Shown here: piece after piece, positions 52,104-61,005 of the stretch
Position numbering within the stretch: position 1 is the first letter of the stretch
Layout of the letters: every line of letters begins with the position of its first letter
Assembly (NCBI GenBank): GCA_965232515.1
Contig: CBDDPY010000002.1
Coordinates: 2,112,001 to 2,176,000 of the forward strand
From: Alphaproteobacteria bacterium
GTDB taxonomy: Bacteria > Pseudomonadota > Alphaproteobacteria > GCA-2731375
Length of the DNA stretch: 64,000 nt
Direction: 5' to 3'
Notes under the pieces: generated by a model
Databases searched by the model: none
The model's input: only the letters and a program-made list of their open reading frames with translations
Told to the model about the DNA's origin: nothing
Made by a program: the position numbers and the translations under genes

Positions 52104-53120
52104 ATGCGCGTTCAACGCCTGATAAGCCCGGTTGCCAGCGTTGCTTTCGCGCTGCTGTTCAACCTGGTCGCTGCGGTCGCACCGGCAATGGCCGACACCG
52201 CGCCTTTCGATCTCAACGACACCGTCAAGGCTGTCGTCAAGGTGACCGCCGAGGTTCCGGCGGACGCCCGCACAGCCGCGTTCCTCGGCACGGAACGCGA
52301 AGGCAACGGCGTCGTCATCGACGACGATGGGCTGGTGCTGACCATCGGCTACCTGATCCTTGAGGCGATGTCGGCGAACGTCGCCAATGCCGCCGGCGAG
52401 ATGGTGCCGGCGGAAATCATCGCCTACGACTATGACACCGGATTCGGCCTGCTGCGCGCGCTGGACCCGCTCGATATCGAACCGCTCCGGCTGGGCAGCG
52501 CCGGTGAGCTCAAGGAACGCGATCCGGTCCTGGTGGTCGGCAACGGGGGCCAGGAGGCGACGATCGGCGCCTTCGTCGTCTCCCGCCGTGAATTTGCCGG
52601 ATACTGGGAGTATTTGCTGGACAGCGCGATCTTCACCTCGCCACCGCACCCGAATTGGGGTGGCGCGGCGCTGATCGGCCCAAACGGACGTCTGCTGGGT
52701 GTCGGCTCGCTTCTGGTGCGGGACGCGATGCCGCCGCCGGATCTGATTCCCGGCAACATGTTCGTGCCGATCGACCTGCTCAAGCCGATCCTCGGCGAAC
52801 TCCTGGAGCTCGGGCGGAGCGCCGGCAAGCCGCGGCCTTGGCTCGGCATGTTCTCGGCCGAATCGCTCGGCCGCGTCGTGGTGACGAGCGTCGCGCGCGA
52901 CGGACCGGCGGACAGCGCCGGAATCGAATCGGGCGACGTCGTGGTCAGCGTGTCAGGCGAGAATATCGAGGATATGGGCCGGCTCTACCGCAAGATCTGG
53001 TCGCTGGGCGAGGCGGGTGTGGACGTGCCGATCACCGTCCTGCGCGGCAGTCAGGCGCTGGACATCGTTGTCCGTTCGGGCGACCGCTACGACTATCTAA
53101 AGCTACGGCAGACCTACTGA
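52104..53120 (+). CDS. Trypsin-like (S1C) protease homolog with PDZ domain; catalytic triad degenerate
   Basis: GNGVVI, LTIGYLI, PNWGGAALI, RPWLG, GPADSAGIESGD. Confidence 0.85.
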   Translation: MRVQRLISPVASVAFALLFNLVAAVAPAMADTAPFDLNDTVKAVVKVTAEVPADARTAAFLGTEREGNGVVIDDDGLVLTIGYLILEAMSANVANAAGEMVPAEIIAYDYDTGFGLLRALDPLDIEPLRLGSAGELKERDPVLVVGNGGQEATIGAFVVSRREFAGYWEYLLDSAIFTSPPHPNWGGAALIGPNGRLLGVGSLLVRDAMPPPDLIPGNMFVPIDLLKPILGELLELGRSAGKPRPWLGMFSAESLGRVVVTSVARDGPADSAGIESGDVVVSVSGENIEDMGRLYRKIWSLGEAGVDVPITVLRGSQALDIVVRSGDRYDYLKLRQTY

Positions 53121-53268
53121 CCAATCCGCGCGCCGCGTCGGGACGCGTTAGGATCGAGCCCGAATCAGGCTGAGCATCCACATACGCCACGGGTAGTGTG
53201 TCAAACGCCGTCAACCACAAAATTTAGTTGCGGGTGTCCACGCGGCCTGCTAGATGATGCAAATAGTT

Positions 53269-54135
53269 GGGGCGTCGGGGCGCTGAAGCCGAAGCTCTAG
53301 CGTCGTGTCCCGCTAAGGACACCCCCGACACCCCAGGAGCCGGTCTCGCTCCCCACACCCGCCAGCAGCGGGCTCAGCTTACGGTCGCTTCGTGCCGTCG
53401 ACGTTCCGGGTCGTCGACCGCGCGTTGCGAGCGTTGTTTTCCGTTCGGGTTCCGGAAGCTGCCGGCAACAACTCCTCGCGAAGTTCCCGCCGGTCTCCGG
53501 CCCGCCGCGCCCGAGGGCGCGGCGTTTCGGAGAGTTCCGCTCCCGATCGACCGCCGACCGAACAGCCATCCGCCACGCCCGAGGGCATCGCAGTCGACCG
53601 TGTCCGCCGACAATCGGCTGGTCCGGATCGCGTCGCCCCTGGCGCAAACGATGTCCGAAGACTTCGTTCGACACCCTGGCCGCACGATCGGAGCGGGGTT
53701 GGATCTGCCCGACCGTTCGACGTCGCGACCCGAAGGCCACACCGTCTCGCAATCGGACGGACGTGATATCGCCCCGGAGGGTAACACCACCGCCTCGCCC
53801 CTGGCCGGCAAACACGAGGCCTGCCAGCCGGACGAAGCCCCTTCCCCAGCCGAGGCCGCTGGATCCGGTCGTACGCCCGAAGGCGTCGCGATCTGATCGT
53901 CGCTGCCCCGCCAGCGGACGGATGGGCCATGTGCCAGACCGTCCGACCGGCCCGAAGGCCAACCTTCCGATCCGACGACCGCTCCGTCCACGGAGAACGT
54001 GCCGTCCCGCATCGAAGAACTGTCAAACCCGAAGGTTCTTGGCTCTCCGACCGAAGCCTGATCGTGGGGGCGTCATGGTCGACCCCGAAGGGTTTTCCGC
54101 TTCGCCTTCTCGACCGATGCTTCGGCGCTAACGCG
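53269..54135 (-). ncRNA. Candidate large structured non-coding RNA (unassigned family)
   Basis: Eight CCGAAG (= cUUCGg on minus) hairpin loops plus related loops, multiple long stems, no credible ORF. Confidence 0.55.
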
Positions 54136-54201
54136 TGCAGTTAGAGTATTGATGGGTGGCAGAAAGAAAACAACAAGAAAAATTGACAAAACCTAAAAAA
54201 T

Positions 54202-54263
54202 CTGTGAATAGTTGGAATAGAAAAACACAATCTATTCACAGTTTATCCACTAAAAAATCCACA
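54202..54263. promoter_or_regulatory. Cluster of DnaA-box-like 9-mers in an AT-rich tract
   Basis: TGTGAATAG 54203, CTATTCACA 54232, TTATCCACT 54243, AAATCCACA 54255 (consensus TTATNCACA). Confidence 0.55.
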
Positions 54264-54489
54264 TACGATGACTTCCGGTCTTTTTTTGAATTCATGAAGC
54301 ATCTATATAGTAGCGGCGACCGCCAAACAAACCGGATTTCCTCGGATCGATGCACGACAAATCGGTTCGACATGCCGCAATCCGGCGCTAAATGGTAGCT
54401 TGCGCCGCGCAAACGTGATTGTTAGACCAACCGATGCCGCGCATTGCCCGGTTCGCAACGCGAATCGTCCTATCTGCCGGGAGTCCCGC

Positions 54490-55110
54490 ATGCTATCCCG
54501 CCGCACATTTTTCCTCAGTCCTCTCGCTGTCGGATTGCTGCCGGCGACGGCCAAGGCGGAGGCTTCCGCCGAAGCCGTGAACGGCGCCAGCCAGTTCATA
54601 CAATGGCTTGCCGACCAGGCCATTGCGGTGCTGGGCGCAAGCAACTCGACACTGGAGACGCGGGAGGCGGAGTTCCGCCGGTTGCTGGGACAGGGATTTG
54701 CCCTGCCGTTCATCAGCCGGTTCGTTTTGGGCCGCTACTGGCGGACCACGACCCCAGAGCAGCGAGAGGACTATCAGGAGCTGTTCGCCGAGTACATCCT
54801 GCGAACCTATTCGAACCGCCTTGGCGGCTATGCCGGGGAGACCTTCAAGGTCACCGGGGCCCGCCCCGCCGGCAAACAGGACATTCTGGTCGCCACGCGG
54901 ATCGATCGTCCCAGCGGTCCGCCGATCAAGGCGGACTGGCGCGTTCGCATCTTCGACAACGAATACAAGATCATCGATATCATGGTCGAAGGCGTCAGCA
55001 TGGCCGTGACCCAACGGTCGGAATTCACCAATGTTGTCCGCAGCCAGGGTATCGACGGCCTGCTGCAGGCCCTGCGCGCGCGCACCGAGCGGATGCCGGC
55101 GACATCGTGA
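54490..55110 (+). CDS. mlaC: MlaC/Ttg2D family phospholipid-binding protein
   Basis: SRR-type signal, FVLGRYWR, DWRV, KIIDIMVEGVSM..TQRSEF. Confidence 0.9.
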   Translation: MLSRRTFFLSPLAVGLLPATAKAEASAEAVNGASQFIQWLADQAIAVLGASNSTLETREAEFRRLLGQGFALPFISRFVLGRYWRTTTPEQREDYQELFAEYILRTYSNRLGGYAGETFKVTGARPAGKQDILVATRIDRPSGPPIKADWRVRIFDNEYKIIDIMVEGVSMAVTQRSEFTNVVRSQGIDGLLQALRARTERMPATS

Positions 55111-55139: not shown

Positions 55140-55982
55140 ATGCCTCTGTTGCACTTTGACCCCGATAGCGACCGCCCACGGCGGGCCGCGCTGGCTTCGC
55201 TGGCGATCGCGGCGGCGCTGCTGGCGACGACACCGTCATTGGCCGACATCGCGGCCGGCTACGAAGCCTATCAGCGCGGGGATTTCGCCGCCGCGCTCTC
55301 GGAATGGCGACCGCTGGCCGAAGCCGGCAATTCGCGGGCGCAGTACAATCTCGGGATCCTGTATGACGAAGGCCGCGGGGTCGCACGCGACCGCGGCCAA
55401 GCCATCGCCTGGTGGGAGAAGGCGGCGAAACAGGACTACGCCCCGGCACAGCACAATCTGGCCAGTCTGTATATTGGTGGCGACGGCGTCGTCCAGGATT
55501 ACGCGAAAGCAGTTACCTGGCTGCAACGCGCCGCCGACAATGGCTTGGCCCGGGCCCAGTATACGCTCGGAAAAATGTTCTACGACGGTCTCGGAATCCC
55601 GGCCGACCGCACGGCATCGGCCCGCTATTATCGCCTGGCTGCGGACCAGGGCCTGGCCCGGGCCCAATACAATCTGGGCAAGCTCTATCGCGACGGCGAC
55701 GGGGTCGAGCAGAGCGACGCGGAGTCGGTCAGATGGTTCGCGTTGGCGGCGCGCCAGGGCTATGCGAAGGCGCAGAACCACCTGGGCACCCGATACGCAC
55801 GCGGCATCGGCGTCAATCGCGACGACGTGCAGGCCTACAAGTGGGCAGCGCTCGCGGCCCGGCAAGGCCATGCCGCGGCGAACGAGAACCTCAAGGTTCT
55901 GCGCGGCCGCATGACGTCCGCAGACATCGAGAAGGCCGAAGCCCTGATCGCCGCCTTCCGGCCGGAACGCAAACGCGAATAG
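55140..55982 (+). CDS. Sel1-like repeat protein
   Basis: Repeated AQYNLGxxYxxGxGV...AAxQG. Confidence 0.92.
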   Translation: MPLLHFDPDSDRPRRAALASLAIAAALLATTPSLADIAAGYEAYQRGDFAAALSEWRPLAEAGNSRAQYNLGILYDEGRGVARDRGQAIAWWEKAAKQDYAPAQHNLASLYIGGDGVVQDYAKAVTWLQRAADNGLARAQYTLGKMFYDGLGIPADRTASARYYRLAADQGLARAQYNLGKLYRDGDGVEQSDAESVRWFALAARQGYAKAQNHLGTRYARGIGVNRDDVQAYKWAALAARQGHAAANENLKVLRGRMTSADIEKAEALIAAFRPERKRE

Positions 55983-56089: not shown

Positions 56090-57640
56090 ATGCACTGGTT
56101 CAACCGCCGTCGCGCGGCGGCGCTCAGCACGTTCGTTGGCGTAGTGACGATGACCGTCGCGTCGGTCGCGGCCGGGCAATCGTCGGCGCCGGGGATTGCG
56201 GCGCGCATAGATGCCGCTGTCAGAGCCAACCAGGCGTCGCTGGCCGCGGCCGGTACCGGCCCCAATGCGCAGTCAGCCGCGCTGCAGGCCCAGCGGCGCC
56301 TCGAGAGCGAGTTGAGCGCGATCGTTGTCGGCACGATAGCGCAACGCCCCGATCTGTTGACATCCGTCGTTCAGGCGGCCGTCAATGCCGCGCCGCCGGC
56401 CCGTAACCGCATCGCCAACCGGGCCGCCAGCGCCTATCCGGGCTATGCCACGCAAGTCTACGCCGCCGCCGGCATCGACCCGGCGACAGCGCCCGCCTAT
56501 CCGCAGGCCAACTTCGGACTGACAACGTTTCCGGGCGCGCCGACTTATGCGCCCCGAGCAGCGACGCCCGCCATCAGCGCCAGCTATGCCCGGACCTCGC
56601 GGGCAAGCCGCAACGCCGATGTCGCAAGCCGCGTCGTGGCTTCGATTGCCGCCAATCCCGCCCAGGCCGAGACCATCGTGCGCGACGCCGTCGCCCGCGC
56701 ACCGGATCAGCGCGACAACATCGTCCGGACGGCAGGCCGATCGTTTCCCACCTTCGCCGGCCGCATCGCTACCGCGGCCCAGTCGGCGCCCGTTGCACGC
56801 CCGGCGAGCCAGACAAGCCCGGCGCCGCCGTCTCCGGCCGCCACACCGATCGCGCAGCGCCTGCCGACAGCGGGCCCCGCCGCAACCGCCAGTTCCGCGG
56901 CGCGACAAGCGACGCCGGCCGCGTCCCCGGCAGAGACCTCGGCGGGCCTTGTCGGTCCCGAGGAGGCCCGCGATCCGATCGAGTCGTTCAACCGGGCCGT
57001 CTTCGCGTTCAACGAAACGGTCGATTTCCTGATTTTGCGACCGGTCGCCTGGACCTACAACAAGATCACGCCGGATCCCGTCATCTTCGCCGTGCGCCGC
57101 TTCTTCGACAATCTGGGCTCGCCCGTCATCTTCGCGAACGACCTGTTGCAGCTCACGTTCGACGATGCCGGAGTCACGTTGGGACGGTTTGGCATCAACA
57201 GCACGATCGGCCTGTTGGGCTTTTTCGATGTCGCGGAAGACTTCGGTCTGGAACGGCATACAGCCGATTTCGGCCAGACCCTGCACGCCTACGGCACCGG
57301 CCCCGGTCCGTACATCGTGCTTCCCCTCCTCGGCCCGTCGACGGCGCGGGACGGCGTCGGCACGGTGGTCGACATTTTCCTGGACCCGCTGACCTATCTT
57401 CTCGGTTCGCCGGAATCCTATATCGTCACCGGCAGCCAGGTGGTGGTCGCCCGCGAGGCGCTGCTGGAGCCGCTGGACGAGCTGAAGCGAACGTCGGTCG
57501 ACTACTACATCTCGCTGCGCAGCGCCTATTACCAGCGCCGCGCGGTCGATCTGAACAAGGGCCGCGGCAGCGGCGGCGGCGCGGCCATCGACGAGCTGTT
57601 CGATTCGCCCGAGCTCGACGACGAAGCGGCGCCCAACTAG
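56090..57640 (+). CDS. mlaA: MlaA/VacJ family protein with long N-terminal extension
   Basis: C-terminal DPIESFNRAVFAFN, RFGINSTIG, DFGQTL, GPYIVLPLLGPSTARD, Y..LRSAYYQRR. Confidence 0.88.
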   Translation: MHWFNRRRAAALSTFVGVVTMTVASVAAGQSSAPGIAARIDAAVRANQASLAAAGTGPNAQSAALQAQRRLESELSAIVVGTIAQRPDLLTSVVQAAVNAAPPARNRIANRAASAYPGYATQVYAAAGIDPATAPAYPQANFGLTTFPGAPTYAPRAATPAISASYARTSRASRNADVASRVVASIAANPAQAETIVRDAVARAPDQRDNIVRTAGRSFPTFAGRIATAAQSAPVARPASQTSPAPPSPAATPIAQRLPTAGPAATASSAARQATPAASPAETSAGLVGPEEARDPIESFNRAVFAFNETVDFLILRPVAWTYNKITPDPVIFAVRRFFDNLGSPVIFANDLLQLTFDDAGVTLGRFGINSTIGLLGFFDVAEDFGLERHTADFGQTLHAYGTGPGPYIVLPLLGPSTARDGVGTVVDIFLDPLTYLLGSPESYIVTGSQVVVAREALLEPLDELKRTSVDYYISLRSAYYQRRAVDLNKGRGSGGGAAIDELFDSPELDDEAAPN

Positions 57641-59299: not shown

Positions 59300-60280
59300 A
59301 TGCCGGCGCTGCACGCGGCCCGAGAAACCTGGCCATTGCCGGGCGAGTTCAGGATATCGCGTGGCGCGCGCACCGAGAGCATCGTCGCGGTCGTCGAGAT
59401 CGAGGATGGCCCGCATCGCGGCCGCGGCGAATGCTTTCCCTACCCACGCTATGGCGAAAGCGTGGAGTCCGTATTGCAGCAAATCGATGACATCAGGTCG
59501 GAGATTCAGGCCGGAATGTCCCGGCAGGCACTCCAGAGCCTGCTGCCCGCCGGGGCGGCGCGAAACGCGATCGATTGCGCGCTCTGGGATCTGGAAGCCA
59601 AGACGGCGGACCGGCGGGTCTGGGAACTGGCCGGATTGCCGCGACCCGAGGTCGTGACGACAGCCTATACGCTCAGCCTCGGCGAGCCGGCGGCGATGGC
59701 CGCCGCGGCACGCGAGGCCGCCGACCGGCCGCTTCTGAAACTGAAGCTGGGCGGCGCGGACGATATCGCGCGGGTCGCGGCCGTGCACGAGGCCGCGCCG
59801 GCGGCCGACATAATCGTCGATGCGAACGAGGCCTGGACGCCGGACATGGTGATCCCCCTGAGCCGTGCATTGGCCGCTCTCGGCGTCACCATGATCGAGC
59901 AACCGCTGCCGGCCGACGCCGATCAGGCGCTGGCCGAGATCGATCATCCCGTGCCGATCTGCGCCGACGAGTCCTGCCACACGGCCGCCGACGTGTCTGC
60001 GCTGGCCGGCCGCTATGACATGGTCAACGTGAAGCTCGACAAGACAGGCGGCTTGACCGAGGCAATCGACCTGATTGACGCCGCGCGGGCGGCCGGCCTC
60101 GACCTGATGGTCGGGTGCATGGTCGGGACATCTCTCGCCATGGCGCCGGCGACCCTGATTGCCGGTGCGGCCCGGTATGTCGACCTCGACGGTCCGTTGC
60201 TGCTTGCCCGCGACCGCGATCCGGGACTGCGCTACGACGGTAGCCGGCTATCTCCGACGACGCCGGAAATCTGGGGCTGA
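59300..60280 (+). CDS. dgcA: N-acetyl-D-glutamate racemase / dipeptide epimerase (enolase superfamily)
   Basis: FRISRG, KLKLG, DANE, EQP, ADES, VKLDKTGG, GCM, DLDG. Confidence 0.88.
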   Translation: MPALHAARETWPLPGEFRISRGARTESIVAVVEIEDGPHRGRGECFPYPRYGESVESVLQQIDDIRSEIQAGMSRQALQSLLPAGAARNAIDCALWDLEAKTADRRVWELAGLPRPEVVTTAYTLSLGEPAAMAAAAREAADRPLLKLKLGGADDIARVAAVHEAAPAADIIVDANEAWTPDMVIPLSRALAALGVTMIEQPLPADADQALAEIDHPVPICADESCHTAADVSALAGRYDMVNVKLDKTGGLTEAIDLIDAARAAGLDLMVGCMVGTSLAMAPATLIAGAARYVDLDGPLLLARDRDPGLRYDGSRLSPTTPEIWG

Positions 60281-60423
60281 GGACCGGCCGGCCATCGGAC
60301 GTCCGCCCGCGGGCGAAGATCAGCCGGTCCGTCGCGCGCGCATCCACACACACGTTCCCACCAAAGATAGATGTTGAATACTTGCGCAAATTCACTTAAA
60401 TTTCTTGAGTAATTTAAATAAAA

Positions 60424-60480
60424 ATAACAAATTATTAACCATATCCAATTATATATTCACTTCTGTAAATAATGAGTTAA
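60424..60480. promoter_or_regulatory. CtrA-like boxes upstream of pilin
   Basis: ATAA-N7-TTAAC (60424-60439) and TTAA-N7-TTTAC on minus (60465-60480) in an AT-rich region; CtrA control of pilA is established in Caulobacter. Confidence 0.5.
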
Positions 60481-60639
60481 TAAAACTGAAGTTATTTTAC
60501 TTGATCAACTTCGATTTTCGATCTAGATTCCTCGCATTCCACTCCGTCGAAGGACCAATGCGTCTGACGCATTCCGTCTACGTTCGGCGGTTTTACGGCC
60601 ACTGCTGCAAATGGTCTGGAATGGATAGGAGGACCCACA

Positions 60640-60849
60640 ATGCTGCGGGTTATTACGGAAGCTCAGTCGACGTGGATGCGCGTCCGCAAGTTCGTCAAGG
60701 ACCAGTCGGGCGCCACGGCGATTGAATACGGCCTGATCGCCGCCGGCATCGCCGTCGCGATCATTACCACCGTCTTCGCGCTCGGTACGGATATCGACGC
60801 CTTCTTCGTCGACATTCAGACCAAGCTGCAGAACGGCGGTAGCGGCTGA
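60640..60849 (+). CDS. flp: Flp family type IVc pilin
   Basis: DQSG|ATAIEYGLIAA Flp motif; RBS AGGAGG. Confidence 0.95.
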   Translation: MLRVITEAQSTWMRVRKFVKDQSGATAIEYGLIAAGIAVAIITTVFALGTDIDAFFVDIQTKLQNGGSG

Positions 60850-60891
60850 TTTGCCGTCGGCGTTTATCGCCGACGCAATTCGCTACGGGCA

Positions 60892-60933
60892 ATCCGGGGG
60901 CGGTGCGCACGCCCGCCCCCGGATCCCTTTTTT
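60892..60933 (+). terminator. Rho-independent terminator after pilin
   Basis: ATCCGGGGGCGG...CCGCCCCCGGAT followed by a T-tract. Confidence 0.8.
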
Positions 60934-61005
60934 GTTGTATTCACGGTATCCTCGGCCGTCGAATGTCGGTACCAATCGGTTCCAACGGCCGCTGCCGGAA
61001 CGCGC

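Follow-up and report, generated by a model that had tools for sequence, protein, structure and literature searches.

Between the genes for a trypsin-like protease and for MlaC, in the chromosome of an alphaproteobacterium of the GTDB lineage GCA-2731375 (GenBank assembly GCA_965232515.1, hereafter G000), lies an interval of 1.37 kb that very probably contains the gene of a transcribed, conserved and structured non-coding RNA (ncRNA) of an undescribed family. The window, i.e., the whole 64,000-nt stretch that was analysed (contig CBDDPY010000002.1, positions 2,112,001 to 2,176,000), places this locus at 2.166 Mb of the chromosome, and all G000 locus coordinates below are those of the window. 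The protease gene, whose product carries a PDZ domain (52104..53120, plus strand; Pfam Trypsin_2 5e-15, PDZ_2 1.1e-11), is convergent with the predicted RNA gene, and mlaC (54490-55110, plus strand; Pfam 1.1e-43) is divergent from it. The RNA gene itself, of ~885 nt, is predicted on the minus strand at 53255..54141, with its start near 54136-54141 and a U-rich tail near 53255. Both boundaries are predictions: the start was placed from a conserved -10 element and a 5' hairpin that stand at a fixed distance from boxes further upstream (in 16 of 17 loci), and the end from a match to a model of the 3' domain (53252-53362). A sequence-only reading of this DNA had proposed a transcribed, multi-domain RNA read from the minus strand, and that proposal is now backed by strand-specific folding, by the occurrence in other families of sequences homologous to its two ends and to an internal block, and by four covarying helices. 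A conserved sigma-70-like promoter, a U-rich tail in the expected orientation and no Rfam match add to it; transcription itself is deduced from these features.

The absence of a credible protein gene from this interval, as first suggested, is borne out by two types of evidence. The 53050-54450 segment is without codon periodicity, as the spread of GC content between codon positions does not exceed 0.14 (windows from 53050 to 54250) and reaches 0.17 at 54400, versus 0.27-0.45 in the flanking genes. In addition, six of the seven overlapping open reading frames (ORFs) of the region have no Pfam match at E<=1, the seventh giving a weak, sub-threshold match to DUF6946 (E 0.029, 14.2 bits for a cutoff of 27). 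With codon periodicity absent and no Pfam match above cutoff, the protein-coding reading was rejected. What had drawn attention to the interval was the hexamer CCGAAG, all eight copies of which were found on the plus strand where they had been reported (53289, 53655, 53730, 53877, 53952, 54029, 54051, and 54085). The main contig of 7.33 Mb contains 3835 CTTCGG and 3914 CCGAAG, or ~0.53 per kb per strand, and hence ~0.46 copies would be expected per strand in 870 nt, in agreement with the initial rough estimate of less than one. Eight copies in 900 nt make this the top same-strand cluster of the 7.39-Mb genome, the runners-up having seven each; the rRNA operons have four CUUCGG copies.

Folding points to the minus strand. 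A comparison with dinucleotide shuffles had been proposed together with the original prediction: for the minus strand of 53200-54160, the folding energy is -525 kcal/mol versus -454.1 +/- 7.7 in 20 such shuffles (z -9.2), while the plus strand of the same segment gives -437.1 kcal/mol versus -410.5 +/- 8.4 (z -3.2). The minimum free energy (MFE) structure of the minus strand over 53230-54150 comprises 339 pairs (225 G-C, 61 A-U, and 53 G-U), leaving 74% of the bases paired. When this structure is mirrored onto the plus strand, 53 pairs are lost and the energy goes from -511.6 to -324.5 kcal/mol, i.e., 187 kcal/mol less; A.C oppositions, the plus-strand counterpart of G-U, number only 12 versus the 53 G-U pairs, so that the preference of G-U for the minus strand, already seen by eye, can now be given in numbers. 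The MFE has 17 hairpin loops, of which eight are c(UUCG)g, two c(CUCG)g, one c(UCCG)g, and one c(GCGA)g, in hairpins ~40-77 nt long with a loop-to-loop spacing of ~75 nt; two of these hairpins, H3 and H7, resemble each other (score 40 versus a null maximum of 20.5 +/- 2.3). The sequence-only reading had thus rightly taken the hexamers as C(UUCG)G loops capping stems on the minus strand and had rightly listed one C(UCCG)G loop. Of its three C(CUCG)G loops, two are present in the MFE and the third, at 53850, falls inside a stem of this single-sequence structure. The long-range pairing that it drew between 53537-53549 and 53685-53696 is replaced by local hairpins in the MFE, a matter that one sequence cannot settle. 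In a scan of the window by 300-nt segments, folding outliers of the region are at about -3 sd relative to the remainder of the window. The same scan has its top outlier elsewhere, at 60701, in a low-GC patch (60201-61000, GC 0.41-0.62) whose minus strand folds unusually well and that has no Rfam family match; the GC-rich segment 22301-22800 folds well on both strands.

The RNA does not belong to any of the known families that were searched. No Rfam match at gathering score was obtained anywhere in the 64-kb window, which agrees with the initial impression that no recognised RNA was present, and permissive Rfam searches of the region gave only sub-threshold matches that were judged to be noise (best E 0.47; 5.5-16.6 bits versus gathering scores of 40-101). 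GOLLD, ROOL, OLE, raiA, HEARO, 6S, RNase P, transfer-messenger RNA (tmRNA), signal recognition particle (SRP) RNA, and group I/II introns were all rejected, as none reaches its gathering threshold. ARAGORN called no tRNA or tmRNA in the region, and an Rfam search of 20 homologous loci returned one unrelated tRNA and nothing else. No published description of the RNA was found in a literature search of partial coverage that lay outside supplementary tables, so that a prior description may exist.

Homologues, which the sequence-only reading had suggested collecting for a covariation test, were first visible only at the 3' end. Since the genome samples are partial, the counts given here and below are of homologues found among the genomes searched. 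Direct BLAST against 40 relatives and the whole 33-genome order gave only matches of 28-62 nt on other contigs, taken as chance, and BLAST against plasmid and phage collections gave nothing. Among 400 genomes of the class, two, from one genus of another family, were matched by BLAST with 81-82% identity over 60 nt, the matched part being the final ~100 nt of the predicted RNA. The three aligned sequences have in common a hairpin and a three-way junction whose third arm shows compensatory double changes at four of its pairs. They served, G000 included, as seed for a covariance model of the 3' domain, R1, which was followed by a later model, R2. In G000, the 3' domain (53252..53362, minus strand) scores 107.5 bits with R1, of which it is a seed member, and 84.2 bits with R2. 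It is composed of a hairpin, Pa (53336-53352), followed by a three-way junction closed by P1 (53323-53334 with 53269-53280) and containing P2 (53305-53322) and P3 (53281-53302), and ends with the U-rich tail (~53255-53268).

R1 has a single match at E<0.01 in G000, a second one of 19 bits (E 0.04) having been set aside. It detects the domain at other loci in 24 of the 32 other genomes of the family of G000, in 7/13 genomes of a second family (f198, all four genera), and, in a class sample with one genome per family, in 11 of 150 other families. No match was obtained with R2 in a phylum-wide sample (0/150 genomes), where few candidates per genome were scored. In an alignment of 23 sequences, 93.5% of the cells of the helices are paired versus 73.3% in shuffles, and double changes affect 30 of the 33 pairs. 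The covariation score of 0.608 compares with 0.244 in shuffles, none of 500 reaching 0.608, and with no more than 0.167 after sliding of the partners. RNAalifold, applied to the same alignment, returned the identical four helices, with compensatory changes at 27 of 30 pairs. This alignment was fitted to the model and hence leans to the structure, but the effect size and the slid controls argue that the covariation is real. The four helices of the 3' domain thus covary, and P1, a pairing that had been drawn from the G000 sequence before any homologue was known, is among those backed by covariation.

At the other end of the predicted RNA lies an AT-rich divergent control region (54140..54300; 38% GC versus 65.5% for the genome) that separates the RNA gene from mlaC, and the same GC dip exists in the homologous loci. 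On its minus strand, inspection reveals a sigma-70-like promoter (54145..54173), with a -35 TTGTTT (54168-54173), a 17-nt spacer and a -10 AATACT (54145-54150); homologues have in the same place a T-rich run, TTGnnn, 17-19 nt, and (A/G)ATACT. A stricter consensus promoter scan did not call this minus-strand promoter in G000, and the promoter scan gave a TTGACA-18-AATAGT match on the plus strand (54183-54212) that faces mlaC. The predicted RNA then begins with a stem-loop, GCACGC-GUUA-GCGCC (54124..54138, minus strand), followed by GAAGC (54119-54123). An alignment of 17 homologues gives the consensus GCACGC-GNNA-GYGUS-GRAG for this 5' element.

The same region contains four DnaA-box-like 9-mers (54203..54263, minus strand), which are candidate boxes by their match to TTATNCACA, the sequence that we take to be the DnaA-box consensus. 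These are TGTGGATTT (54255-54263, 7/9 to the consensus), AGTGGATAA (54243-54251, 8/9), TGTGAATAG (54232-54240, 8/9), and, in inverted orientation, CTATTCACA (54203-54211, 8/9), so that three of the G000 sites, those at -110, -99, and -70 relative to the RNA start, depart from the consensus by no more than one position. This layout is as in the homologues, which typically have two boxes of the same orientation around -123 and -111 and an inverted one around -71; in 16 of 17 loci, the second box and the 5' hairpin are 109-121 nt apart. Within 200 nt upstream, 26 of 32 loci contain one or more perfect TTATNCACA, and 31 of the 32 have two or more boxes with at most one mismatch. Perfect boxes occur at 1.41 per 200 nt, versus 0.0054 in 555 control windows. 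The consensus match suggests that DnaA binds these boxes. Two variants of this layout were encountered: in loci of genus g6, such as L425 (G019), an extra DnaA-like TGATCCACC overlaps the -10 element or start, ~20-30 nt before the RNA start, and the promoter of one RNA copy (G434b, locus L399) has CTTGTGGATAA repeated 3.5 times.

A cluster of DnaA sites in an AT-rich dip could also be read at the level of DNA, as a datA- or DARS-type locus for titration or reactivation of DnaA, or as a secondary or relic origin, with hairpins that are incidental or that structure the DNA. In this respect, no feature of the family is more constrained in position than the sites matching the DnaA-box consensus, and a parallel exists in Caulobacter crescentus, where the 182-nt ccnA gene lies inside the origin, with weak DnaA boxes within it, according to the published account (PMC8959179). 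CcnA is the nearest published parallel found, likewise an alphaproteobacterial ncRNA gene linked to DnaA boxes, the comparison being by description only; that its 182 nt equal the length of the shortest homologue of the present family is a coincidence of the chosen bounds. Unlike what the same account describes for ccnA, over 2 Mb separate the G000 locus from hemE (4.389 Mb), dnaA (4.585 Mb), and the minima of the cumulative GC skew (~4.2 and 5.81 Mb), and the boxes of this locus stand upstream of the promoter. The GC skew does not turn at the locus, and an origin (oriC/Cori) was rejected on grounds of these distances. Furthermore, strand-specific structure, G-U pairs and compensatory changes are not required of DNA hairpins, and the element is framed by a promoter and a U-tailed 3' structure. 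The DNA-level explanation is therefore considered improbable, although the two readings are not exclusive and the boxes may act on DNA too. Two other contigs of the G000 assembly, C3 (5516 nt, 46% GC) and C4 (10862 nt, 42% GC), differ in composition from the chromosome (65.5%) and could represent small plasmids, phage DNA or a contaminant.

Between the 5' stem-loop and the 3' domain extends a hypervariable, G-rich body of hairpins (53363..54118, minus strand), most of which, according to the MFE and pair probabilities, are capped by cUUCGg, cCUCGg, cUCCGg, or cGCGAg. With the exception of one internal motif, block A (GGACGGCACGUUCUCC, 53992..54007, minus strand), the bodies do not align between families. 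G000 matches the block A consensus, GGACGGCAnGUUCUCC, at 16/16 positions, and the block is found with at most three mismatches in all eight aligned homologues linked to mlaC and in none of 14 other loci examined, of which four or more are located beside sdhC. The predicted length of the RNA ranges from 182 nt (in G437) to ~1480 nt across the family. Over 26.2 kb of 31 RNAs, CUUCGG occurs 194 times in sense versus eight times in antisense, a 14-fold enrichment that is confined to the sense strand, when the flanks of these RNAs have 0.51 CUUCGG per kb per strand; one genome has 19 copies in ~1.2 kb, and G exceeds C in 29 of the 31 RNAs. CUUCGG is absent from five of the 31 homologues, so that the UUCG trait by which the locus was first noticed does not define the family. 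In one homologue, the second RNA copy of genome G434 (G434b, L399, 1084-1597), a 29-nt UUCG-hairpin unit is repeated 13.1 times within a 116-nt super-repeat present 3.2 times, and the 29-nt array shows that the body lengthens as hairpin units are duplicated. Judging from these comparisons, it is the two ends of the RNA, and not the UUCG-hairpin body, that are conserved.

Such a body raises the question of whether anything but the last ~110 nt is functional, as a branched intrinsic terminator or a small RNA, the ~770 nt upstream being a neutral spacer whose hairpins arise from composition or mutation bias. That the body cannot be aligned between families, that it varies up to ~1.4 kb while the whole RNA of G437 has 182 nt, that five members are devoid of CUUCGG, and that the outliers of the 300-nt scan are only ~-3 sd from the rest of the window would all fit this explanation. 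Nonetheless, the enrichment of CUUCGG is sense-only across the 31 RNAs, and the body folds beyond shuffles far more on the sense strand in two distant members, G000 and G010 (z -5.1 in sense and -1.0 in antisense for the latter). Block A is kept within the body of all aligned mlaC-linked members and conservation extends to the promoter and the 5' hairpin, on the other side of the body, which makes the whole interval one transcription unit. A function restricted to the 3' domain thus appears very unlikely.

The genomic context of the family is variable. In G000, mlaC is followed on the plus strand by a gene for a Sel1-repeat protein (~55140-55982; Pfam Sel1 1.6e-47) and, further downstream, by mlaA (~56801-57640; Pfam MlaA 1.1e-69). 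The divergent position of mlaC upstream of the RNA recurs in nine other genomes, which, with G000, represent three families: six belong to the second family, one to a third, and two (out of three genomes of genus g4) to the family of G000. Among the homologues, the mlaC-Sel1-mlaA trio is Pfam-confirmed for G410 only. In six genomes from six further families, the RNA gene is located on the sdhC/sdhD side (loci L404, L405, L407, L403, L402, and L409), a GreA/Rnk-like gene being intercalated in one locus. Convergent genes downstream at these loci include a malyl-CoA-lyase-like gene (HpcH/HpaI) in G159 and G173 and a mesaconyl-CoA hydratase gene in G128. In genus g6, the RNA lies between the genes for an iron alcohol dehydrogenase and a PQQ dehydrogenase (Pfam, two genomes). 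Because mlaC-linked members share block A, the G000 arrangement is probably old, and g6 would have moved or replaced the gene. In a metagenome scan with the protease, no relative exceeded 63% identity and mlaC was downstream in one of 80 loci. In the same-genus genome G001, the contig ends inside a cyclase gene, leaving the locus unassembled. The protease has a paralogue with 53% identity in G000 (G000:C2:5966989-5967930); the best G001 match to the protease (52%, E 4.6e-107) ties with this paralogue in E value and may correspond to it rather than to the window gene.

This variability, and the direct succession of protease gene and mlaC in 23 of 29 related loci, which gives G000 the appearance of carrying a 1.37-kb insertion, could be taken as signs of a decaying or selfish repeat without function for the cell, such as a REP/BIME-like cluster, a MITE or a degenerate CRISPR-like array. 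The quasi-periodic hairpins, some of which are alike, and the existence of a few genomes with two copies go in the same direction. Two copies are for instance found in tandem in G160 (L402, 1001-1106 and 1871-1980), and G437 has two near-identical ones on contigs C1 and C2. The idea of a G000-specific insertion was withdrawn in view of the recurrence of the mlaC linkage in other families, as a linkage found in three families is more likely ancestral than due to a recent insertion. As to the repeat class, which the sequence-only reading had named as the kind of result that would speak against an RNA, the region is single-copy in G000 by BLAST and no repeat family accounts for it: no dispersed short relatives were found in this genome (blastn-short, best E 0.13 elsewhere), nhmmer with 13 sub-units recovered only the region itself at E<0.01, TRF called no tandem repeat in the region at a minimum score of 30, and the direct repeats of the region are just two-copy matches of 12-17 nt. 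A dispersed or tandem repeat (REP/BIME/MITE) and a CRISPR array were both rejected on these bases. REP/BIME clusters and CRISPR arrays do share with the region quasi-periodic intergenic hairpins at 60-80 nt, but the latter has no genomic repeat family and no exact repeats, and its stems span the whole unit, with no spacer-like segments.

Scans for the same architecture elsewhere agree with this distinction. Three CTTCGG at 60-80 nt occur in at least 117 loci of viral contigs; in the best 25 of these by CTTCGG count, the stems closing the loops have mostly 1-3 pairs, and we read these 25 loci as tandem repeats rather than hairpin arrays. A hairpin-pair pattern searched in genome contigs gave at least 118 loci, which are either arrays of exact repeats or repeats within coding sequence that show codon periodicity. 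Neither scan yielded an analogue of the region among the matches listed, and the true repeat arrays among them contain 1-3 distinct units, unlike the region. Near-identical repeat arrays with GCCTTCGGGC at 60-145 nt spacing, observed in Gemmata, Neisseria, Kingella, and Thermomicrobiales (L248, L302, L306, and L323), probably represent CRISPR arrays with repeats that fold into UUCG hairpins. In the family described here, conservation and covariation across families are found at the ends, the body not being conserved, and there is little chance that the locus is a selfish or decaying repeat.

The preferred reading thus remains that of a minus-strand ncRNA gene, and several points weigh against it. 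Transcription, the two ends of the RNA and its abundance are predictions from sequence. The binding of DnaA is likewise predicted, from the consensus match, and none of the G000 boxes is perfect. The 5' stem of G000 has two mismatched positions at its base, its U-tail (AACUAUUUGC) is a weak one, and no terminator was called by the scan. Moreover, the RNA starts of eight g6 genomes and of five other loci (13 in total) were set by eye or by offset. The G000 copy is thus among the less canonical members of the family, and its off-consensus boxes, imperfect 5' stem and weak U-tail may indicate a copy that is less tightly regulated or terminated.

With these reservations, a model can be outlined in which the RNA would be transcribed from the sigma-70-like promoter with some control by DnaA, and the three-way junction would act as an intrinsic terminator ending it. 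The functional core would be made of the two conserved ends, ~180 nt in total, as in the shortest homologue, while the hairpin body would be an expansion that is either tolerated or selected for generic stability, nuclease resistance or escape from Rho. Rho needs unstructured C-rich RNA, and this is why such a body could escape it. How the RNA would act is a matter of speculation: tentatively, and with limited confidence, we propose that its synthesis follows DnaA activity and that it works in trans, as a stable RNA that serves a protein partner as scaffold or decoy. The CsrB/RsmZ protein sponges, which are built from repeated hairpins, offer a resemblance in the possible mode of action, without implying membership, in that they have many similar, modular stem-loops between defined ends, in a copy number that varies by species. 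By eye, richness in purines and numerous GGA triplets are seen in sequences of the family. The GGA to which protein binds in CsrB-type RNAs is located in hairpin loops, whereas the loops of G000 are UUCG, CUCG, UCCG, or GCGA; UUCG is a structural tetraloop that is not known as a protein-binding signal.

OLE, GOLLD, ROOL, raiA, and HEARO are large structured bacterial ncRNAs whose function is unclear or partly known (PMC12286853, PMC10861870). The RNA studied here shares with them a length of several hundred nt or more, a highly structured and non-coding nature, and a stand-alone gene; its early assignment to the size class of GOLLD, ROOL, and OLE was correct as regards size, but none of the corresponding Rfam models matches. 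In these known RNAs, an ornate core that takes up most of the length is conserved, whereas in the present family only ~180 nt at the ends and a 16-nt block are conserved, the body being a hypervariable array of hairpins. The alphaproteobacterial range and the DnaA-box promoter further distinguish it from this class.

Bacteria have few large structured RNAs, and every new class of them has led to new biology. The family reported here reaches 11 of 150 sampled alphaproteobacterial families, in addition to the 24/32 and 7/13 genomes of the two families searched in depth. It has been missed by Rfam-based scans, in which intervals of 0.2-1.5 kb beside mla or sdh operons look gene-free, and models R1 and R2, together with the geometry of the motifs, now make it directly searchable. 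Its mode of evolution is unusual for an RNA: the ends stay fixed, and the body between them, starting from almost nothing, reaches 1.4 kb as hairpins are duplicated. More speculatively still than the scaffold or decoy proposal, the G000 locus could be the founding example of a new RNA class, controlled by DnaA boxes, with conserved ends as a core and an evolving concatemer of UUCG hairpins as a body, that would report the status of the replication initiator to the cell or to the divergent mla or sdh operons. In such a class, the RNA might act as a protein scaffold or decoy or via higher-order assembly, and operons for envelope lipids (mla) or respiration (sdh) would share its control region. 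In any event, the promoter architecture points to DnaA and thereby to a testable link between the cell cycle and this RNA.

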